A stretch of DNA of 64,000 nt, taken from the NCBI GenBank assembly GCA_041687115.1, contig JAWLCP010000003.1, forward strand, positions 7,315 through 71,314, in the 5' to 3' direction. This stretch comes from Anaerolineae bacterium (GTDB taxonomy: Bacteria > Chloroflexota > Anaerolineae > B4-G1). Positions 43,813 through 52,241 of this stretch are shown piece by piece (the first letter of the stretch is position 1; each line of letters starts with the position of its first letter). The notes beneath the pieces are model-generated. The model was not told the origin of the DNA and ran no database searches. It saw only the letters and a list, made by a program, of their open reading frames with translations. A program made the position numbers and the translations under genes.

Positions 43813-44304
43813 TCATACAATACGGTCGGCGACCTCGGCCAGGAGCCCGGCGATGGGCGGCACGAGGAAGGTAACGGAGTACCGGATGAGGGCGGGGCGG
43901 GGATCGATGAGGGCCATCTCGACCGGGAGACGGGAAACAGACCAGAGGGCCCACGCGGTGACGAAGCCGACCACGGCGCCGATACTGGCGCCAGCCTGGT
44001 AGAGAGAGGCGACGATGGGAAAGGTGGCGTATGGGGCGCCAGGGACCAACCCGCCGACGACGCAGCCGATGAGGATTCCCTTGACCCCGGCGCGGTTGCC
44101 CAACCAACGGGAGATGAGCTCCCTGGGGACGAGCACCTGGACGAGGCCGGCCAGGACGAAGCCGACGATGAGAAGGAGCAGGTTGCGGCGCACGGTGTTC
44201 CAGGCAGCCAACAGGCCGTCCATGGCCACATTCTTCCCCTGCCGGAGCGCGATGAAGAACAGGGCGGCGGCGACGATGGTCAGGACGACGGTCGTGGTGT
44301 CCAC
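43813..44304 (-). CDS. Small polytopic membrane protein, putative (half-)permease, first gene of the RR-HK operon.
   Basis: Multiple TM segments. GTG start with strong GGAGGAGG RBS; the ORF track gives a longer version to 44334. Confidence 0.5.
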   Translation of the reverse strand: MDTTTVVLTIVAAALFFIALRQGKNVAMDGLLAAWNTVRRNLLLLIVGFVLAGLVQVLVPRELISRWLGNRAGVKGILIGCVVGGLVPGAPYATFPIVASLYQAGASIGAVVGFVTAWALWSVSRLPVEMALIDPRPALIRYSVTFLVPPIAGLLAEVADRIV

Positions 44305-44457
44305 TGAATTGCCTCCTCCGCGTTTGGGTGTCATGTCGGTTCTCTCAGTATCGCGTTTTGTCTAGCTGCAGCGGGGTTGGGCGACGTCAGACGGTCAATG
44401 TATCCATTGTAGCCTCACTCGGGCTTCTGCGCCAGTGGTCCGAGCGAGGGGATAACG

Positions 44458-44475
44458 TGTGGCACCTGTGGCACC
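44458..44475 (+). repeat. Perfect tandem direct repeat TGTGGCACC x2 in the promoter region of the permease-RR-HK operon.
   Basis: Seen directly: tgtggcacctgtggcacc. Located ~125-155 nt upstream of the operon start on the minus strand. Confidence 0.5.
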
Positions 44476-45069
44476 CTGGGTAGAACCGAGGTGCTGGATT
44501 GATGGGAGCCCCGCCCTCGGGGCGACTAGGGCCGACGACGAGTTGCCTCGTCGGCCTGGGCGGTCCCGAGGGCGGAGCCGGTACCGGGTGTTACCGGCTC
44601 GTCTAGCCGCTGTGGAGTGCCAGAGCGGTCCATAGGGCGCCGGCGAGGTCAAGGACTCCGAGCAGCAGCATTGGTTGAGCCAGGCCAGCGAGCACCATCA
44701 CGGCGGTGCAGATCGGGAAGACGACCCGGCCCAGCGGCAGAAGGTCGTTAGTCGGTTCCTGGCCGCCTGGACGTGGTAATAGCCGACGATGATGACGAGC
44801 GATGCCATCACGCGGATCCAGGGTTCAGTGGTGGGCTGGAAGCCCAGGATTGTGAGCGGGAAGGGTGGGAGCCTCACCGATGCGAACGCGGCTCTGAACG
44901 CGGCCTTGTCTGGGAAGGTTTCGGTGCGCCGCCGGCGAGCCAGTCGGCGCCAAGGCCGGTGTGTCGGAGGACTCGTAGGCCACCTGGGGTGTCAGCCGCG
45001 CAGATGAGGCCGTCCTCGACGATAGGGGCACGGATATCTGCTTCGGGTAACTGCATCGTCGAGCCTCGG

Positions 45070-46704
45070 TCACTCGCCTATTGCATTGGGCACGGGACCC
45101 TCGGTGTCGTCGAAGCTGGCGAAGTGTTCAGTCTCTGCATCCTCTCGGTAGTGAGCTCCCCGAGATTGCCGGTTGTGCCACGCGGCGTTGGTGACGATCC
45201 AGGCAACCTGGGCCATGTTTCGCAGACCGATAAGGCCATCGTCCAGGCGTGTTGCGCGATAGAAGTTGTCGATCACGCCCCACAGATGATCCAGCTCGTT
45301 CAACGCGCGGGCCAGGCGGTGCGTGTTCCGTGCCAGACCGACGTAGAGCCACATGATGTTCTGGATGGCATGGGTGTCCCGCGTGACGAGCACTGGGTCG
45401 GCAGCAGCGTTGTCGTTGGGCGGCTCCCAGGGCGGGATCGTGTTGGCATCGACAGGGCGGAGGTCGGTGCGTGACGCGATGTCCTGACCAGCCCGTTGCC
45501 CCCAGAGCAGCCCTTCCAGCAAAGACGTGCTGGCTAGCCGGTTGGCACCGTGGACCCCGGTGCAGCTCACCTCTCCCACGGCGTAGAGCCCGTGCAGGGT
45601 AGTGCGGCCCACGGCATCTACGTGGACTCCACCGCAGAAGTAGTGGGCGGCGGGGACGACAGGGATAGGCTCTGCAGTGATGTCGACGCCAGCGTCCATA
45701 CAGGCCTGGTAGATGGTGGGGAAACGGTCCTGGATCTCCTGCGCTGTCATGGCAGAGGCTAGGTCGAGACACACGTGGGGGTAGCGGTGATCCAGCATCT
45801 CGTGGTGGATGGCGCGCGCCACCACGTCGCGGGGGGCCAGGTCACCCCATTCCGGCGCGTAGTCGTCCATGAAATGGCGGCCGTCGGGCGTGTATAGCCG
45901 TCCTCCCTCGCCGCGCAGCGCCTCCGAGATGAGGAAGTTGTCCGCCCCCGGCACGGCCAACGTCGTGGGATGGAACTGGACGAACTCGGCGTTGATGACA
46001 CGGGCGCCCGCCCGGTAAGCCATGGCCAGACCGTCGCCGCGGGCTCCCTTAGGGTTGCTGGTGTGCTGATAGATCTGGCCGACGCCGCCGGTGGCTAGCA
46101 CTGTGGCCGGCGCGAGGAAGCGGTGGATCTCCCCGGAATCCCGATCGAGGACGTATGCGCCGTGGCACGTGATCGGCGCGTAGACGGCGTGGAGATCCTG
46201 GCTGTGGTGCGAAGAGGTGATGAGATCCACGGCCGTCAGGCCCGCGAGGAGGGCGACATTGGGCAGCGCCTGCAGCTGATCGATGAGCGCGGATTCGATG
46301 GCGCGGCCTGTTGCGTCGCCCACGTGGAGGATGCGAGAGACGCGGTGTCCACCCTCTCGGGTGTAGGAAAGGCTGCCGTCGGCCTCCCGATCGAAGGGGA
46401 CGGCCAGATCCTCCAGCAACACTCGCTCGACCAGCGGCGGCCCTTCCTCTGCGAGGAGCCGAGCCGCCCTCGGCAGGCTGAGGCCAGCGCCAGCTCTGAG
46501 TATGTCCTGTTCGAGCAGCTGAGTGCTGTCGCCGGGTCCGCGGGCCACGATGCCGCCCTGGGCGTAGCGGGTGTTTGACTCCTCCGGATTCCGCGCCCGT
46601 GTGATGACCGTGACGTGACGTTCCTGATCCTGAGCGAGCTGCAGGGCGGTGGCTGCCCCGGAGATTCCGGAGCCGATGACGAGGACGTCAGTCTCGGCGG
46701 TCAT
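45070..46704 (-). CDS. nadB: L-aspartate oxidase NadB.
   Basis: VLVIGSGISGAATA FAD motif. RYAQGGIVA. Succinate-DH/fumarate-reductase flavoprotein fold. Confidence 0.9.
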   Translation of the reverse strand: MTAETDVLVIGSGISGAATALQLAQDQERHVTVITRARNPEESNTRYAQGGIVARGPGDSTQLLEQDILRAGAGLSLPRAARLLAEEGPPLVERVLLEDLAVPFDREADGSLSYTREGGHRVSRILHVGDATGRAIESALIDQLQALPNVALLAGLTAVDLITSSHHSQDLHAVYAPITCHGAYVLDRDSGEIHRFLAPATVLATGGVGQIYQHTSNPKGARGDGLAMAYRAGARVINAEFVQFHPTTLAVPGADNFLISEALRGEGGRLYTPDGRHFMDDYAPEWGDLAPRDVVARAIHHEMLDHRYPHVCLDLASAMTAQEIQDRFPTIYQACMDAGVDITAEPIPVVPAAHYFCGGVHVDAVGRTTLHGLYAVGEVSCTGVHGANRLASTSLLEGLLWGQRAGQDIASRTDLRPVDANTIPPWEPPNDNAAADPVLVTRDTHAIQNIMWLYVGLARNTHRLARALNELDHLWGVIDNFYRATRLDDGLIGLRNMAQVAWIVTNAAWHNRQSRGAHYREDAETEHFASFDDTEGPVPNAIGE

Positions 46705-46730
46705 GGTGTGTCCTTCAGTGGGATCCAGTG

Positions 46731-48641
46731 TCACAACGCCAGCATCCGTTTCAGAGCCACTCTGGCCCATCTCGCCGTCTCCTCGTCGACGGTGACTTCG
46801 TTGTGCAGCTTGCCGTGCGTCAGACCGTCCAGGACCGCGGCCAGATTCTCCAGGGTGATCCGGGTCATGGTGGCGCAGTAGGGCGGAACGTCGGCCAGCG
46901 GGACGACGGTCTGGTCGGGATGCTCGCTCTGCAGGCGCTGGACCAGGCGGGTCTCGGTCCCGACGGCCCAGATCGTGCCGGGCGGTCCCGCGGCGACCTG
47001 GCGGATGATGTGGGCCGTGGACCCCGCGTCGTCGGCCAGGGACACAACGTCGGCGGTGCATTCGGGATGCACGATGACGCGGGCCTGGGGGTGATGCGCC
47101 CGAAAGGTCCGAACATGCGAGGGTCGGAAGCGCTGGTGCACGTTGCAGGCGCCGGGCCAGAGGACGACCCGGGTCTCACGAAGGACCTCGTCGGTGAGGG
47201 GCCGCCCCTGATCCCAGACGGTCATCTCGGCCGGGGGAATGTCCAGCTGCGCTGCGGTGTTCCGGCCCAGGTGCTGATCGGGGAAGAAGAAGACGCGCGG
47301 TCGACGCTCGAGTGCCCAGCGGAGCACGTCTGGGGCGTTGCCGGAGGTGCACATGATGCCGCCGTACTTTCCGCAGAAAGCTTTGAGGGCAGCCGATGAG
47401 TTGACGTACGTGATGGGCGTGAACTCGCTCTCCGCATCGTCGGAGGCTGTGTCGAGCGCCTTCCAGGCGGCCTGCACGGCGCCAAGCGTCGCCGTGTCCG
47501 CCAGGTAGCAGCCGGCGCTGGGGTCGGGGATGAGCACGTGCTGCCCAGGCTGCGCCAGGATGGCGGCGACCTCTGCCATGAAGTGGACCCCGCAGAAGAC
47601 GATGTACTCGGCGTCGATGTCCGTGGCCTGCCGTGCAAGCTGCAGGGAGTCGCCACGATAATCCGCGAATTCGATGACCTCGTCTCGCTGGTAGTGATGG
47701 CCTAGAATGACGAGCCGTTGATTCAATGCTGCCTTGGCGTCCCGGATGCGCTCAACTGGGTCCGGAACGCCTGTTTCCTCCGATGGGGCTCTGACGTCCA
47801 TGCTCACGTCCAACGCACGCACCGAGTGCGTCAGTGCACCCACAGAGATGTAGTCGACACCAGCGGCCGCTATGTCCGCGACGGTATCCAGGCTGACGTT
47901 CCCGGAGGCCTCCAGAGGCACACGCCCGCCGGCCACCTCAACCGCCTTCCGCATCGTCGCCAGGCTCATGTTGTCCAGCATGATGCGATCCAAAGGCGGC
48001 GTGATGCTCAGGGCCTCGCGGAGCTCGTCTAGCGTGCGAACCTCCACTTCAATGGGGAGGTCGGGCTGAGCAGTGCGGGCCCGGGCCACGGCGGTGGTGA
48101 TGCCGCCGGCCCCCACGATGTGGTTGTCCTTGATCAGGATCATATCGAAGAGGGCCATGCGATGATTGGCGCCGCCGCCCATGCGCACCGCGTACTTGTC
48201 CAGCAGGCGATGACCGGGCACGGTCTTCCGCGTGTCCAGGATGGTGGCCTGGGTCGTGGCGACAGCATCAACGTAGGTCCGCGTGGTGGTGGCGATGCCC
48301 GACATACGCTGCAGGAAGTTGAGCGCCAGACGTTCCGCGGCGAGCAAGGAGGGCGCAGGTCCCTGGACCTCCGCGATGATCTCGCCGGCGACTACCTCCT
48401 GACCATCGTGCACGCGGGAGGCGAAACGAATCTTGGGGTTCACGTGATGGAATACGTGCTCTGCCACGCCGAGGCCGGCGATGACCCCCGCCTCCTTGGC
48501 CACGATGCAGCCGGTCAGCGACGTCTCAGGATCCAGCGTTGCCTCACTGGTCACGTCGCCGGGACCGATGTCCTCGGCAACTGCCAGCTCGATCAACGGC
48601 TCGGCAGCCCTCAGCAGCTCGTCGTTAGAAGTCCTGCCCAT
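46731..48641 (-). CDS. nadC-nadA: Apparent fusion protein: N-terminal quinolinate phosphoribosyltransferase (NadC, ~285 aa) joined in frame to quinolinate synthase (NadA, ~340 aa).
   Basis: NadC motifs: LDTRKT, IKDNH, ISVGALTHS. No stop between them. NadA motifs: VILGHHYQ, FCGVHFMAE, PDPSAGC, PGACNVHQ, HPEC. Confidence 0.75.
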   Translation of the reverse strand: MGRTSNDELLRAAEPLIELAVAEDIGPGDVTSEATLDPETSLTGCIVAKEAGVIAGLGVAEHVFHHVNPKIRFASRVHDGQEVVAGEIIAEVQGPAPSLLAAERLALNFLQRMSGIATTTRTYVDAVATTQATILDTRKTVPGHRLLDKYAVRMGGGANHRMALFDMILIKDNHIVGAGGITTAVARARTAQPDLPIEVEVRTLDELREALSITPPLDRIMLDNMSLATMRKAVEVAGGRVPLEASGNVSLDTVADIAAAGVDYISVGALTHSVRALDVSMDVRAPSEETGVPDPVERIRDAKAALNQRLVILGHHYQRDEVIEFADYRGDSLQLARQATDIDAEYIVFCGVHFMAEVAAILAQPGQHVLIPDPSAGCYLADTATLGAVQAAWKALDTASDDAESEFTPITYVNSSAALKAFCGKYGGIMCTSGNAPDVLRWALERRPRVFFFPDQHLGRNTAAQLDIPPAEMTVWDQGRPLTDEVLRETRVVLWPGACNVHQRFRPSHVRTFRAHHPQARVIVHPECTADVVSLADDAGSTAHIIRQVAAGPPGTIWAVGTETRLVQRLQSEHPDQTVVPLADVPPYCATMTRITLENLAAVLDGLTHGKLHNEVTVDEETARWARVALKRMLAL

Positions 48642-49116
48642 ACTCTAAGCTCCTTCTGGCCGTGATGATAATTACACTTGATGGATGGACTAGGCGTCAC
48701 GATACTGAACCTCAGAGGCCACGCCGTCGGTGGTGCTGCCTCTGGACCAGCAGGCTGCGGGCGAACCCTTGAGGGCCCTGAGCCGACGTCGGGTACGGCG
48801 AAGAGCCATGCGGGGCTTCAGGGTCTCGAGGTGCGGAGCCCAGACCGGGGTACCGATGTCCGGGTCAGAATCAACGAGGCGACGACAATCAAGCTGGATA
48901 CTCTGATGTCTCCCATTCTTCCACGACCTTACGTGCCAGGCCGCAGCCCCGGCAGATTTCGGCTCGCCCACGGCTCACGTCGCGATCACTCGTCATCTCT
49001 GTCCTCTTGCAGGTGGTTCCTGTTCTAGCTGAACACAAGCGATACTACACCTGCTCCGAGATGGTGTCAAATGCTGGGGCGCCGCGCACGTGCTAATGCG
49101 TTGGGGGCGTGAACGG

Positions 49117-50409
49117 CTACGACCCGTCGAGCTCCTGCAGGGCGGTCTGGGCCGGAAGCCAGCCCTCGTGGTACCGGAGGGCGGCCTTGAAATCCGACCG
49201 GGCGGCCTGGGTGTCGCCGAAGGCGACGCGGGCTTTACCACGCCAGTAGTAGGATTCCTCCAGGTTGTTCGCCGTGTTCAGGGTGGCGTTCGCCAGGGCG
49301 ATGACGTCGTCGTAGCGCCCGGCGGCGTGGTAGCTCTCGTAGGGGCCGAACTGGTACCAGAGCATGCGGTAGTGGAGGCCGAGCTGACGTGCTTGGTCGT
49401 AGGCGGCCGCCGCCTCCGCATGACGGTTCAGTGCGGTGAGGTTGGTGCCGATGTTGAAGTGGGAGAACGTGACCCAGTCGCCGCAGTCGGCGTAGGCGAC
49501 GCACGAGTCGTGGGGCTCGGCTGCCTCGGCGCGCGCCCTGTCCAGGGCTGCCTCGTACATGGTGGTATCGTCGATGTCTGGGCCGAGGAGGGTGGCCAGA
49601 TCCTCCCATCGCTCGGGCTGGTAGACGACCAGGTAGAGGCGGTTGAAGACACGCCATAACTCATCCATCTCTCGATAGCCGACGGTCACGTCGGGGCCGT
49701 TGAGCGAGTCGTACGTCAGAAAGTGCTGGGCCGCGTCGTCGTAACCGACGATCAGACGGTAGTGGCCGAGCTGATCGCGGGCGTCGCGCACGTGCCAGGT
49801 CTCGACCAGGACGGGGAACCCAGCACGCACAAGGGTCTTGAGCCGGTCCAGCGTCCCGTTGACGCGCACCGTGGCCTCTAGCCCCAAGTCCCGGGCGTAG
49901 GTGGCCATCTCCCACGGGCTGACGTTCTTGTCCTCGGGATCCGGCTTGAGAACCGGGGCGATATCCATCTGGGTCTCATCCCGGTCCCAGTAGGACAGGG
50001 CCATGGCCAGCGTGGTGGGCCCGCAGTTGTTCCAGCGCTGATGCTCGTGGCGGACGCCGGCAAGGCTGAAGGCGGCACGAGGTGTAGGGCTGGCCGTTGG
50101 CGACGGAGCCGGCGTGTCGGTAGGGTGCGGCGTGTCGGTGGCCGGCGGCATATCGGTCGGAGGCGGCGTCTGCGTGGGCGAGGGGCTCGGGCTGGGCGTC
50201 TCGGTCGGCGACGGACTGGGCTGGGTATGGGTGATGACGGGTGTGGGAAGGGTATCGGGGTGCGGGTTATGACGCATCTCCTGAAGCGGCTCCGGCAGGT
50301 ACACGGCATAGCGGCCGGGGAGGGCGCGGATGAGGGTCGGAGTAGCCAGCAAGGCCACACCCAGGACGACCAGGGCGCCGATCAAGATGACCGTCCGTGA
50401 GCTTTTCAT
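49117..50409 (-). CDS. Secreted peptidase-C39-like domain protein with Pro/Thr-rich linker and C-terminal TPR repeats.
   Basis: Signal/TM N-terminus. TPTPSPSP linker. WNNCGPTTLAMALSYW (C39-like catalytic Cys context). TPR-like helical repeats at the C-terminus. Confidence 0.6.
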   Translation of the reverse strand: MKSSRTVILIGALVVLGVALLATPTLIRALPGRYAVYLPEPLQEMRHNPHPDTLPTPVITHTQPSPSPTETPSPSPSPTQTPPPTDMPPATDTPHPTDTPAPSPTASPTPRAAFSLAGVRHEHQRWNNCGPTTLAMALSYWDRDETQMDIAPVLKPDPEDKNVSPWEMATYARDLGLEATVRVNGTLDRLKTLVRAGFPVLVETWHVRDARDQLGHYRLIVGYDDAAQHFLTYDSLNGPDVTVGYREMDELWRVFNRLYLVVYQPERWEDLATLLGPDIDDTTMYEAALDRARAEAAEPHDSCVAYADCGDWVTFSHFNIGTNLTALNRHAEAAAAYDQARQLGLHYRMLWYQFGPYESYHAAGRYDDVIALANATLNTANNLEESYYWRGKARVAFGDTQAARSDFKAALRYHEGWLPAQTALQELDGS

Positions 50410-50555
50410 GACGGTATGATACCCGGAAGTCGGTCGATCCGCCACCCTACGCCGCAGCGCCCACGACGATAGGTGAGCGGATGGTGCGCGTAGCCCCCGC
50501 CGGGCATGTCGCCCGGCGGGGGCACAGGTCGTAAACATCACGTTTGTGATTGCGG

Positions 50556-50837
50556 TCAGCCTCTAAGTCGGTCTCGAAGCTCCTCAAACTCAGCCGGGGT
50601 AATCTCCCCCGCTCCCAGCCGCCGCCGGGCGATCTCCAGCGGTTCCGGACCCATCTGCAGGCCCGTCGCGGCCGGCTGCCCAACCCGGCGCACCAGCCAG
50701 AACGCTCCCAGCGCCAGCAGCGCCACTAGACCGAGGAACAGGGTCACTCCGAATAGGGGGCCCAGCCACGCCAGGCCGCCCCAGCCCCCCATATGTCCCC
50801 AGCCTCCCCAACCCAAACCGCGCGCACAGAATCCCAT
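50556..50837 (-). CDS. SHOCT-domain small membrane protein.
   Basis: TM LFGVTLFLGLVALLALGAFW plus C-terminal GEITPAEFEELRDRL. GAAGGAGGG RBS. Confidence 0.55.
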   Translation of the reverse strand: MGFCARGLGWGGWGHMGGWGGLAWLGPLFGVTLFLGLVALLALGAFWLVRRVGQPAATGLQMGPEPLEIARRRLGAGEITPAEFEELRDRLRG

Positions 50838-50868
50838 CTTCCCTCCTTCGTATAGTTGTGCGTACGTG

Positions 50869-51090
50869 TCACGACTCTATCTGCTGACGAATCGCTTCGT
50901 GTTCCTCGCGGCTGATCTCGCCGCGGGCGAGACGCTCATCGAGCGTGTCACGGGCTGTCGGCTCTCGCCTTTGGCCAGACAGCCCGATGCCGCTCCCTTG
51001 ATGGCGGGCCAGTGCACCGCCCCCGACCAAGACGGCGACGAGGATGCCTCCAAATAGAATCAGGCCCAGGAAACCGAATAGCAGCATCAT
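50869..51090 (-). CDS. SHOCT-domain small membrane protein (paralog of the previous one).
   Basis: TM MMLLFGFLGLILFGGILVAVLV plus C-terminal GEISREEHEAIRQQI. GAAGGAGG RBS. Confidence 0.55.
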   Translation of the reverse strand: MMLLFGFLGLILFGGILVAVLVGGGALARHQGSGIGLSGQRREPTARDTLDERLARGEISREEHEAIRQQIES

Positions 51091-51328
51091 GTTTTCACCT
51101 CCTTCGCGATTGTGCCCCAGCGGGCACACCTTCCTTTTGCCTCGTCATTGTAGCGTACCGGTGGGTGCGCGACCAGAGGGATTTGGCCCGTCTGTGCCCC
51201 CGCCAAACGGCGGGGGCCGAGACTGGACGACGGACACGTTGGCCAACCTGTGGGCGGTGTGGACGCGGCCGACCTACCCGGAGATGGTGACCGATTCGAT
51301 ATGTGAAAACTATGTTACAGATGCAGAC

Positions 51329-51372
51329 TGCAAGAAAAGAGTCTTGCATTCCGTGCCGGTTTGTGGTATACT
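51329..51372 (+). promoter_or_regulatory. Sigma-70-type promoter TTGCAT-17-TATACT (with TG extension) overlapped by a 7-bp-arm palindrome TGCAAGA-N6-TCTTGCA. Positioned so that the RpiR transcript would be leaderless or near-leaderless.
   Basis: -35 at 51344-49. -10 at 51367-72. ATG at 51378. Palindrome at 51329-51348. Confidence 0.5.
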
Positions 51373-51377
51373 CGAGT

Positions 51378-52241
51378 ATGGCACGTGGAGACGGGATCCT
51401 CGATATGATAACCGCGGCCTTCCCCGATCTCCCTCGCGGGCAGAGGCAGGTTGCCCGTTTCATCGTCGACAATGGAACCTTCGTTGCATTCGCCTCAGCA
51501 ACAGAGTTGGCCGAACAGGCAGGCGTGAGTGCCGCGACCGTGGTGCGTTTCTGTCAGGCGATGGGATACGACGGCTATCCTCACCTTCGAGCAGCAGTTC
51601 GGGAGAGGTTCCGACGGTCTTTGACCACGGCCCAGCGCCTGGAGGAGCGGCTGCGCGCCCCGATTCCCAGGGACGATCTGCTGGCTCAGGTCTTCAGGAG
51701 AGGCATCCAGAACATCAAGTTCCTGATGGAGCAGATCGATCCGAGAGCCTTCGAGGCCGCGATCGATGAATTCGGTCGCGCGAACCACATCCTCGTGGTC
51801 GGCGGGGGACTTTCGGCATCCCCCGCTATGTTCCTCTCCCACTCCCTAAAGGTGATGGGATTCTCGGTCCAGGCGGTGACTACGGGGGGCATACCGCTGT
51901 CGCTGGAGCAGAGTGCCCTGGGACCAGACGATCTCTTGGTTGCCTTCGGATTCTGGAGGTACTTTCGGCATATTGTGGCGACCATGGAATGGGCTCAGAA
52001 GAGGGGAATCCCGAGAATTGCGGTCACCGACAGTGAGGTCTCTCCATTGGCCCAGTTGGCGGACCACGCCTTCATCGCGACCACCGATGGCGTCGGCCAC
52101 AGTGTGTCCCCACTCGCGTCCACCGCGTTGGTCGAAGCCTTCATTGCGGCACTCTCGTTCGGCAGACCTAAGGAGACACTTGCAGCCCTGCGTGACGTAG
52201 ACGCAGCCTACAGGGAGAGCGGCTTGCTACTGGAGGACTAG
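51378..52241 (+). CDS. RpiR/MurR-family transcriptional regulator (HTH + SIS domain).
   Basis: HTH_6: ELAEQAGVSAATVVRFCQAMGYDGY. SIS domain: ILVVGGGLSASPAMFLSHSL. Confidence 0.85.
   Translation: MARGDGILDMITAAFPDLPRGQRQVARFIVDNGTFVAFASATELAEQAGVSAATVVRFCQAMGYDGYPHLRAAVRERFRRSLTTAQRLEERLRAPIPRDDLLAQVFRRGIQNIKFLMEQIDPRAFEAAIDEFGRANHILVVGGGLSASPAMFLSHSLKVMGFSVQAVTTGGIPLSLEQSALGPDDLLVAFGFWRYFRHIVATMEWAQKRGIPRIAVTDSEVSPLAQLADHAFIATTDGVGHSVSPLASTALVEAFIAALSFGRPKETLAALRDVDAAYRESGLLLED

Follow-up and report, generated by a model that had tools for sequence, protein, structure and literature searches.

Quinolinate phosphoribosyltransferase (NadC) and quinolinate synthase (NadA) have been solved as stand-alone proteins, the former from T. 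thermophilus (1X1O), M. tuberculosis (1QPR), and Salmonella (1QAP), and the latter from P. horikoshii (1WZU/5KTM) and T. maritima (4P3X). In Roseiflexus sp. RS-1, a member of the Chloroflexi, the genes are arranged in a nadC-nadA-nadB operon, for which regulation by NrtR has been predicted (Rodionov et al. 2008, PMC2330246). The Anaerolineae locus described here shares the phylum and the gene order with the Roseiflexus operon. However, nadC and nadA are separate in Roseiflexus, whereas they form one open reading frame (ORF) in our locus, and no NrtR-type palindrome was found upstream of it.

Fusion of NadA to another domain is known from plants. The plant quinolinate synthase SufE3, reportedly described by Murthy and co-workers in 2007, consists of a SufE domain fused to NadA. 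Like the protein reported here, SufE3 is a natural fusion with a partner domain at the NadA N-terminus; nevertheless, its partner is a sulfur-transfer domain that helps to assemble Fe-S clusters, whereas NadC is the enzyme that acts after NadA in the pathway. Full-text searches of the literature gave no description of a NadC-NadA fusion, although the subscription literature may hold a prior mention.

Results

The fused nadC-nadA gene and its immediate signals

The window, i.e., the whole 64-kb stretch of DNA analysed, had been predicted from its sequence to carry an in-frame NadC-NadA fusion followed by nadB. The single ORF of 636 codons at 46731-48641 was borne out by the ORF listing; it lies on the minus strand, starts with ATG, and stops with TGA at 46731-46733. 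The 636-aa protein carried three full-length Pfam domains, QRPTase_N, QRPTase_C, and NadA. The coordinates and the description in the original prediction were accurate; the minus strand of the fused gene and nadB was left unmentioned there. No second nadA or nadC was found within the 64-kb window.

A ribosome-binding site, AAGGAG, was read directly from the sequence at 48650-48655 (minus strand), 8 nt 5' of the ATG, and was also kept in the relatives L081 and L085. A sigma-70-like promoter candidate (TTGACA-17-TAGTAT; 49042-49070, minus strand) lies some 400 nt ahead of the start codon; it had 10 of 12 matches and was the sole match in the 4.5 kb scanned. This putative promoter was identical in L081, a relative of 95% identity.

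The NadC and NadA modules

The NadC module occupied residues 1-283 (47793-48641, minus strand) and comprised an N-terminal alpha/beta domain and an alpha/beta barrel. In Pfam, QRPTase_N (PF02749) was matched at residues 29-114 (profile 1-82 of 82, E = 2e-21) and QRPTase_C (PF01729) at residues 116-282 (profile 1-169 of 169, E = 5e-57). The NCBIfam model TIGR00078 (nadC) was matched full-length at residues 17-283 (profile 2-269 of 269), with 316.2 bits against a cutoff of 198.4. These matches agree with the complete domain that had been predicted, and its usual C-terminal motif was recovered as DYISVGALTHSVRALDVSMDV at residues 263-283. The module was 54% identical to T. thermophilus NadC (1x1o; E = 3e-81), and its AlphaFold2 model showed the type II PRTase fold, with a Foldseek TM of 0.95 and an rmsd of 1.4 Å over 274 columns against 1x1o.

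Residues R104, R138, K139, H160, R161, K171, E200, and D223 sit in the motifs ERxALN, LDTRKT, NHR, KDNH, EVEV, and LDN, align with the solved NadC structures, and were invariant in a 120-sequence alignment. We take their quinolinate/PRPP-binding equivalents in M. tuberculosis NadC to be R105, R139, K140, H161, R162, K172, E201, and D222, in a numbering that is said to come from Sharma and co-workers in 1998. The stand-alone NadC enzymes resemble residues 1-283 of the fused protein throughout and have the substrate-binding residues in common with it. Unlike them, the fused protein continues from the NadC C-terminus via an 11-residue linker into a second enzyme; a C-terminal extension of the NadA kind was absent from every solved NadC chain found in the structure searches.

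The second module, at residues 295-636 (46734-47759, minus strand), was assigned to the [4Fe-4S] quinolinate synthase family by profile, residue, and fold matches. Pfam NadA (PF02445) was matched at residues 298-635 (profile 2-295 of 295, E = 7e-97), and TIGR00550 (nadA) at residues 297-636 (profile 8-308 of 309), with 288.2 bits against a cutoff of 262.9. A complete quinolinate synthase beginning at an ILGHHYQ region had been proposed, and LVILGHHYQ was indeed located at residues 310-318. The long-form NadA model NF006884 scored 420 bits, under its cutoff of 691, because the fused protein lacks the N-terminal tail that profile positions 1-73 describe. C378, C499, and C589 align with the cluster ligands Cys83, Cys170, and Cys256 of P. 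horikoshii NadA, the active-site residues H315 and Y317 with H21 and Y23, and E527 with E198; all six were invariant in the 120 sequences. The three-domain pseudo-threefold NadA fold was recovered with Foldseek TM values of 0.90-0.92 to T. maritima 4p3x and P. horikoshii 6ora/5ktp.

The stand-alone NadA enzymes thus have the cluster cysteines and the active-site His, Tyr, and Glu in common with the fused module, and the nearest stand-alone sequences are 50-59% identical to it. They differ in that the fused protein carries NadC in place of the variable N-terminal tail (~20-70 aa) of stand-alone long-form NadA, and in that the archaeal and Thermotoga enzymes lack insertions that the fused module contains. 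Apparent NadC remnants on the N-termini of stand-alone NadA proteins (tblastn matches from query 238-273) were rejected, being unrelated tails with over-extended alignments.

The linker between the modules

The junction, which had been placed near 47760-47800, mapped to residues 284-294 (RAPSEETGVPD; 47760-47792, minus strand). This interdomain linker was the sole poorly conserved stretch of the protein, with a mean top-residue frequency of 0.37 compared to 0.81 for NadC and 0.78 for NadA in the 120-sequence alignment. The span from M281 to residue 295, which includes the linker, varied from 11 to 25 aa with a mode of 12-13, and measured 12-13 aa in 100 of the 120 sequences. The only pLDDT dip of the AlphaFold2 model, to a value of 67, fell in the block of residues 281-290.

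nadB and the regulatory region

A nadB-type gene was found directly downstream in the same orientation (45070-46707, minus strand; 545 aa from the ATG at 46707), as had been predicted. It matched TIGR00551 at residues 5-523 with 488.4 bits, above the cutoff of 452.75, and carried FAD_binding_2 (PF00890) and Succ_DH_flav_C (PF02910), which assigns it to the L-aspartate oxidase family. The spacer between the fusion stop and the nadB ATG is 23 nt long (46708-46730, minus strand) and holds a GAAGGA sequence resembling a ribosome-binding site. The linkage was equally tight in L082, L085, L166, and L167 (spacers of ~0-27 nt), and a gene with the same two nadB-type domains followed the fused gene in all nine Anaerolineae-type loci with called genes. 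In L001 and L086, the ORF downstream of the fused gene was comparable to nadB by size alone.

A riboswitch or other known RNA was not detected in Rfam at E <= 1 over 44000-51500, a range including the 475-nt upstream gap, nor at the gathering threshold across the whole window, and the leader of the fused gene had no unusual structure (z = +0.47). Upstream of nine fused genes, no operator of the NrtR type (21-bp palindrome with a GT-N7-AC core) was found, and no gene for an NAD regulator turned up within ~8 kb. Palindromes did occur upstream in single loci, e.g., TTGTTA-N7-TAACAA in L085, with none common to the loci.

Conservation and origin of the fusion in Anaerolineae

More than 120 protein clusters with Anaerolineae, Anaerolineales, or Chloroflexota names, of ~630-690 aa and 66-95% identity, carried all three Pfam domains, and a second search returned dozens of further fused proteins. 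Every Anaerolineae locus fetched had the fused nadC-nadA gene; a genome-contig scan with patterns specific to the window's protein recovered one named Anaerolineales genome. Close relatives were all fused, which runs counter to the universally separate genes that the original prediction had named as a refuting outcome; separate nadC and nadA genes were met only at 59% identity or below. Together with the invariant catalytic residues, the >120 fused clusters strongly support the genuine fusion that had been predicted. Judged by dN/dS against the 95%-identical relative (0.29 for NadC and 0.36 for NadA), both modules are under purifying selection.

Unfused arrangements were present in more distant sequences. 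In L091, nadC ends in ...VVDK and a stop codon, which is followed by a 24-nt spacer and by nadA starting MELSERV...; the metagenomic L161 and L089 have separate nadC-nadA-nadB operons. The length of the linker approximates the stop codon, the 24-nt spacer, and the start codon of L091 taken together. On these sequence comparisons, the fusion most likely arose via loss of the nadC stop codon and of the spacer after it. An Anaerolineae ancestor would have had a nadC-nadA-nadB operon of the Chloroflexi type, in which the nadC stop was lost and the short spacer absorbed. Such an origin would also account for the domain order, NadC then NadA, which mirrors the order of the genes instead of that of the reactions.

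Independent fusions elsewhere

Both NadC and NadA domains were carried by seven representatives at 50% identity. In domain trees, all built by neighbour-joining, the fused proteins were non-monophyletic (0 of 100 bootstraps in the trees of both domains) and clustered with different unfused operons at 78-100% support. The exhaustive search and the domain trees indicate that NadC-NadA fusions arose independently at least four times. A single origin of all fusions was considered and rejected on the 0 of 100 bootstraps and the differing operon orders. A second populous NadC-NadA family has the operon order nadB-nadCA and a junction of 3-5 aa. Among the other fused representatives, P0123, P0124, P0357, and P0367 were singletons; P0357 is a protein of the reverse order, NadA-NadC, and P0367 is NadE-NadC-NadA. 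A eukaryotic NadC-NadA copy was found in Paratrimastix.

Further fusions within NAD de novo synthesis were NadB-NadA (P0147) and NadB-NadC (P0267 and P0374). These three, as well as P0357 and P0367, resemble the NadC-NadA form in that pathway neighbours are joined. However, they have other partners or orders and are mostly singletons, in contrast to the NadC-NadA form, which has become fixed in entire lineages. The nameable lineages with joined NadA and NadC were Anaerolineae, a Bipolaricaulota metagenome-assembled genome, and an anaerobic protist; many members of these lineages are thought to be anaerobes.

Predicted structure

The window's protein was modelled by AlphaFold2 with a pLDDT of 92.6 and a pTM of 0.90, and a protein of the second, independent fused family with 92.7 and 0.81, respectively. 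Freely oriented modules should score far lower in pTM, which suggests a fixed arrangement of the modules, and the prediction is of a single compact protein in which the two are packed together.

Discussion

The NadC-NadA protein represents a genuine bifunctional version of known enzymes that has been under-annotated. Taking the evidence together, we put at roughly 80% the probability that it is a selected bifunctional enzyme for steps 2 and 3 of NAD synthesis, which originated by stop loss and provides 1:1 co-production and proximity coupling. We infer that both activities are retained in the fused protein. NadB, encoded 23 nt downstream, would make iminoaspartate, which the NadA module would condense with dihydroxyacetone phosphate (DHAP) to quinolinate; the N-terminal NadC module would then convert quinolinate and PRPP to nicotinate mononucleotide, CO2, and PPi. 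Obligatory 1:1 co-production and proximity coupling would be the most likely benefit, and quinolinate from the NadA iron-sulfur site may be consumed by the adjoining NadC without accumulating. Kinetic coupling or channelling may occur in the fused enzyme. NadC active sites form at the dimer interface; therefore, the fused enzyme is expected to function as a dimer with two NadA modules, or as a larger assembly.

The original prediction had allowed for a lost stop codon or a sequencing error, and a missed stop, a frameshift, or a chimeric assembly that merged two genes was indeed an a priori possibility. However, the same fused ORF, with identical architecture and the linker RAPSEETGVPDP, was present in four independent assemblies of the 95%-identical orthologue, drawn from four datasets, and the >120 further fused clusters came from NCBI, JGI, ENA, and Logan. 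Moreover, the junction had zero substitutions relative to the 95%-identical relative, and the linker indels across the Anaerolineae fusion family were all in frame. An artefact is thus effectively refuted, and we give it practically no weight. It is also very improbable that one module is a non-catalytic pseudoenzyme, e.g., a NadC scaffold, solubility tag, or quinolinate sensor, with a stand-alone gene elsewhere supplying the activity. The data cover the window, so that stand-alone nadA or nadC copies may exist elsewhere in the genome, and the rarer fused variants P0346 and P0348 have a shortened NadC barrel (119-138 of the 169 QRPTase_C positions). In the window's family, however, the profile matches of both modules run the full length and exceed the equivalog cutoffs, each catalytic residue mapped in either module is unchanged across the 120 sequences, and the dN/dS values of the two modules are similar. 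Furthermore, no extra nadA or nadC was found in the 10-20 kb around nine related loci.

A more serious alternative, which we nevertheless consider somewhat unlikely, is that the fusion is real but neutral: the modules would be independent beads on a string, a frozen accident of stop loss with no benefit beyond that of the operon. Genomes of Bacillaceae, Spirochaetota, Bacteroidota-like bacteria, and others carry nadC next to nadA and in frame with it, sometimes one stop apart; a fusion then needs only one or two mutations, and its recurrence could reflect opportunity, not advantage. The unconserved linker sequence and the stability of quinolinate as a metabolite are likewise in keeping with neutrality. 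Against it, the fusion has been kept throughout a radiation of class rank, down to 66% identity, none of the >120 clusters shows a fission, and the linker length is tightly constrained although its sequence is not. Independent fusions occur in both domain orders, and AlphaFold predicts for both fused families a fixed arrangement, not floppy domains; these points do not amount to proof of an advantage. At the other extreme, the repeated joining of NadA and NadC could reflect selection for direct hand-off of quinolinate from the iron-sulfur site of NadA to NadC via a conserved inter-module interface. We regard this stronger proposal as doubtful, slightly more so than neutrality. The channelling of quinolinate that had been suggested in the original prediction is plausible, with indirect hints from the compact AlphaFold models and from the recurrence of the fusion. 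NadB hands a labile intermediate, iminoaspartate, to NadA; quinolinate, in contrast, is chemically stable and therefore has no evident need to be channelled. Enzymes of the tryptophan synthase type are recognised by a tunnel or electrostatic path between the two active sites and by kinetic evidence that the intermediate stays out of equilibrium with the bulk solvent, and NadC-NadA is not classed with them here. If selection for direct hand-off did apply, there would be a real, unrecognised cost to free quinolinate or to slow release of the product by NadA, and the Anaerolineae enzyme would rank as the first natural machine for quinolinate channelling.

Returning to the selected bifunctional enzyme, both of its activities are textbook and the fusion of pathway neighbours is familiar; thus, no paradigm is changed. 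The convergently evolved fusions nonetheless offer a natural test case for whether quinolinate is handed directly from NadA to NadC, and the compact protein could serve the engineering of NAD, nicotinate, or quinolinate production. The fused gene is also a clean, synapomorphy-like marker of the Anaerolineae lineage and can be used to trace gene transfer into an anaerobic protist. Anaerolineae are abundant in digesters, sediments, and wastewater. In public databases, many NadC-NadA proteins bear no label other than 'quinolinate synthase NadA', and pathway reconstructions could therefore wrongly score these bacteria as lacking NadC and hence as niacin auxotrophs.

Genomic organization of the fused nadC~nadA gene

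The fused nadC~nadA ORF is located at 46731..48641 on the minus strand and comprises 636 codons from an ATG start to a TGA stop, with an AAGGAG ribosome-binding site 8 nt upstream. The nadB gene (45070..46707, minus strand; TIGR00551, 488 bits against a cutoff of 453) begins 23 nt past the fusion stop codon. Three profile-complete Pfam domains were found in the fused protein, QRPTase_N (29-114), QRPTase_C (116-282), and NadA (298-635). In NCBIfam, the nadC equivalog TIGR00078 matched residues 17-283 with 316 bits and the nadA equivalog TIGR00550 matched residues 297-636 with 288 bits, both above the curated cutoffs (198 and 263, respectively). No second nadA or nadC was present within the 64-kb window. 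The original prediction of a NadC-NadA single ORF followed by nadB was therefore accurate in coordinates and content, and its sole omission was that the whole set lies on the minus strand.

The 475-nt gap that precedes the fused gene (48642-49116) may contain a small 35-aa ORF (48889-48996, minus strand), MTSDRDVSRGRAEICRGCGLARKVVEEWETSEYPA, which carries a CxxC motif. An RBS-like AGAGGA lies 6 nt ahead of it, and a strong promoter-like site, TTGACA-17-TAGTAT (49070-49042, minus strand), is found further upstream. Compared with the 95%-identity relative, four of the five substitutions in this ORF were synonymous third-position changes, and the surrounding 277 nt diverged by 2.5%, versus 6% for the third positions of the fusion-gene codons. 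The ORF had no Pfam/NCBIfam or Rfam match. No unusual structure was seen in the fused-gene leader; as for regulation, there was no Rfam family in the window, no operator common to the fused loci, and no NAD regulator nearby. Beyond the gap lie genes for a C39-like cysteine peptidase that has TPR repeats and is rich in Pro/Thr in its N-terminal region (49117-50541, minus strand) and two small SHOCT-domain proteins (50556-50837 and 50869-51129, minus strand). These neighbours recur in the 95%-identity relative (locus L081), and no tie between them and NAD metabolism was evident.

Conservation of the fusion in Anaerolineae

The original prediction had allowed for a lost stop codon or a sequencing error. 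In a search of 5.8 billion proteins, at least 120 clusters matched the fused protein at 66-95% identity and approximately 100% coverage; they were 629-688 aa long, each with all three Pfam domains, and dozens of further fused clusters were recovered in a later search. Homologues with a named source were 'quinolinate synthase NadA' of Anaerolineae, Anaerolineales, or Chloroflexota MAGs. A 95%-identical orthologue with the same unbroken ORF and the same linker was present in four independently assembled datasets. In alignments of fused proteins (n=28 and n=120), the mean top-residue frequency was 0.81 for NadC and 0.78 for NadA, compared to 0.37 for residues 282-294; the span from the invariant M281 to residue 295 was 11-25 aa overall, with 100 of the 120 sequences at 12-13 aa. 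The comparison with the 95%-identical relative gave a dN/dS of 0.29 in the NadC module and 0.36 in the NadA module, with zero substitutions in the linker. Since the clusters, the four assemblies, the conserved modules, the dN/dS values, and the unchanged linker all speak against it, a lost stop or sequencing error is excluded for practical purposes.

Catalytic residues and predicted structure

The NadC module shared 54% identity with Thermus thermophilus NadC (1x1o; E 3e-81). The quinolinate/PRPP-site residues known from solved NadC structures have the counterparts R104, R138, K139, H160, R161, K171, E200, and D223 in the window protein (R105, R139, K140, H161, R162, K172, E201, and D222 in Mycobacterium tuberculosis NadC), and all eight were invariant in 120/120 homologues. 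The NadA structures of Pyrococcus and Thermotoga could be aligned with the NadA module. By alignment count, C378, C499, and C589 correspond to the [4Fe-4S] ligands Cys83, Cys170, and Cys256 of Pyrococcus horikoshii NadA, H315/Y317 to H21/Y23, and E527 to E198; these six residues were likewise invariant across the 120 homologues.

An AlphaFold2 model built from the 120-sequence alignment had a mean pLDDT of 92.6 and a pTM of 0.90, the sole dip being block 281-290 (67). In Foldseek, 1x1o matched the N-terminal module with a TM of 0.95, and for the C-terminal module superposition on 4p3x and 6ora gave TM 0.90-0.92. No PDB chain covered both modules (best query-normalised TM 0.44), and the sequence-level search gave the same result, so that the NadC and NadA combination is absent from the PDB. 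Every defining feature of the two families that was looked for was found, and both modules are typical of their families.

Operon context and probable origin of the junction

Genes were called in nine Anaerolineae-type loci (L081-L085 and L166-L169), and in each of them the gene directly after the fusion was of the nadB type (FAD_binding_2 and Succ_DH_flav_C); two further loci (L001 and L086) had a downstream ORF of comparable size, matched by size alone. Among the closest unfused relatives, L161 and L089 (45-51% identity) carry separate nadC-nadA-nadB operons with the same gene order as the fused loci, and the order nadC-nadA-nadB has been described in another Chloroflexi, Roseiflexus sp. RS-1 (Rodionov et al. 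2008, PMC2330246). In the unfused relative L091 (59% identity), nadC ends in ...LDVSMEVVDK-TAG, followed by a 24-nt spacer with an RBS and by nadA, MELSERVAELK...LVILGHHYQ. The corresponding junction of the window protein reads ...LDVSMDV-RAPSEETGVPD-PVERIRDAK...LVILGHHYQ, and the fused linker is about as long as an L091-type stop codon, spacer, and start codon together. As judged from these sequences, the L091 junction is likely the ancestral state of the fusion. The domains follow one another as the genes do, which accounts for NadC being first although it is second-acting.

Other genes were found at some of these loci. A divergent nadD-like, NaMN adenylyltransferase-like gene lies convergently after nadB in L085 (8657-9343, minus strand) and L166 (9675-10379, minus strand), with TIGR00482 scores of 62-90 bits that fall short of the 112-bit cutoff. 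Directly upstream of the fused gene in L167 (5408-5953) and L168 (5354-5911) are genes for an ECF-transporter S-component (PF12822), CbiQ, and an ABC ATPase, which could be a vitamin or niacin importer.

Independent fusions in other lineages

A phmmer search run exhaustively against 1.84 billion representatives (50%-identity clusters) returned seven with both domains contiguous; the remaining matches were single-domain or had other architectures. P0121 represents the Anaerolineae family. A second large family, P0127, comprises approximately 50 clusters (57-100% identity, 583-603 aa) with hundreds of members, has a junction of only 3-5 residues, and, unlike the Anaerolineae family, has the operon order nadB-nadCA. 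P0124, from a Bipolaricaulota MAG (801 aa), carries an additional N-terminal LMW-phosphatase domain, and P0123 (KAJ4463080.1, 679 aa, 1.7-Mb contig) is from the anaerobic eukaryote Paratrimastix pyriformis.

In neighbour-joining trees of each module (100 bootstraps, with a hit set biased towards the query), the fused proteins formed a single group in 0/100 bootstraps for both NadA and NadC. In the NadA tree, the Anaerolineae clade had 100% support, and P0127 clustered with unfused Marinifilum/Balneolaceae-type operons at 100%. Two other fused representatives, P0126 and P0125, clustered with unfused L089 (100% in both trees) and unfused Spirochaetota operons (78% and 97%), respectively. These separate groupings with unfused operons, together with the lack of a joint group, indicate that the NadC-NadA fusion arose independently at least four times. 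The NadC module of P0123 grouped with that of another anaerobic protist, Pelomyxa schiedti (P0180, 786 aa), where it is fused to an FCH domain, which suggests that anaerobic protists acquired bacterial-type NAD genes by transfer.

Alternative fused forms, several of them singletons, comprised a reverse-order NadA-NadC (P0357; L172 5001-6860, 1.07-Mb contig), NadE-NadC-NadA (P0367, 889 aa), NadB-NadA (P0147, 878 aa), and NadB-NadC (P0267 and P0374, 805-824 aa). A TatC-NadA protein (P0145, 674 aa), known from one 2.8-kb contig alone, is probably artefactual. Two fused variants, P0346 (589 aa, on a 731-kb contig) and P0348 (603 aa, on a 536-kb contig), matched only 119-138 of the 169 NadC barrel profile positions and had scrambled C-terminal NadC motifs; they may represent decaying NadC modules or frameshifted gene calls.

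Proposed function of the fused enzyme

The gene encodes one polypeptide in which both the NadC and the NadA module are complete and under constraint, and it is tightly linked to nadB or co-transcribed with it. From the conserved residues, we infer with high confidence that both activities are kept and that the protein would convert iminoaspartate, DHAP, and PRPP to NaMN. Since NadC active sites form at a dimer interface, the smallest working form of the fusion would be a homodimer, which carries two NadA modules. The pTM of the window protein, and that of the independently evolved P0127 family (0.81), would be expected to be much lower if the 283- and 342-residue rigid bodies had no defined orientation; the models thus point, with modest confidence, to modules packed in a fixed arrangement.

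Fusion imposes a 1:1 stoichiometry and places the quinolinate consumer beside its producer. True channelling of quinolinate may be possible; because quinolinate is stable, the case is weaker than it would be for iminoaspartate passing from NadB to NadA. As the main alternative, the fusion could be selectively neutral, a frozen accident. Many phyla have nadC next to nadA in a shared reading frame, at times with one stop codon between them, which makes fusion mutationally easy. We consider a purely neutral fusion rather unlikely, and a genuine bifunctional enzyme, the core claim, holds under either the coupled or the neutral reading.

Exactly one stop separated in-frame nadC and nadA in Bacillaceae, Marinifilum, Spirochaetota, and others (genomes L003, L004, L013, and L017; metagenomes L087 and L090), pairs retrieved by tblastn, which favours in-frame pairs. 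Such pairs are ready precursors for fusion, or possibly for read-through of the stop codon.

Annotation and significance

No description of a NadC-NadA fusion was found in full-text literature searches. Public labels read 'quinolinate synthase NadA', with one UniRef entry named 'nicotinate-nucleotide diphosphorylase', and the NCBI and JGI names of P0001, P0018, P0020, and other entries mention NadA only, so that the NadC function is invisible to name-based pathway reconstruction. The architecture is visible in precomputed Pfam annotations, and the fusion is under-annotated rather than hidden. On sequence grounds, the protein joins two consecutive pathway enzymes in a natural bifunctional fusion that has become fixed in a major bacterial lineage and has arisen convergently elsewhere. 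Although unsurprising in principle, it offers a clean natural system in which to test for coupling of NadA and NadC, and in Anaerolineae it matters in practice for how pathways are annotated.
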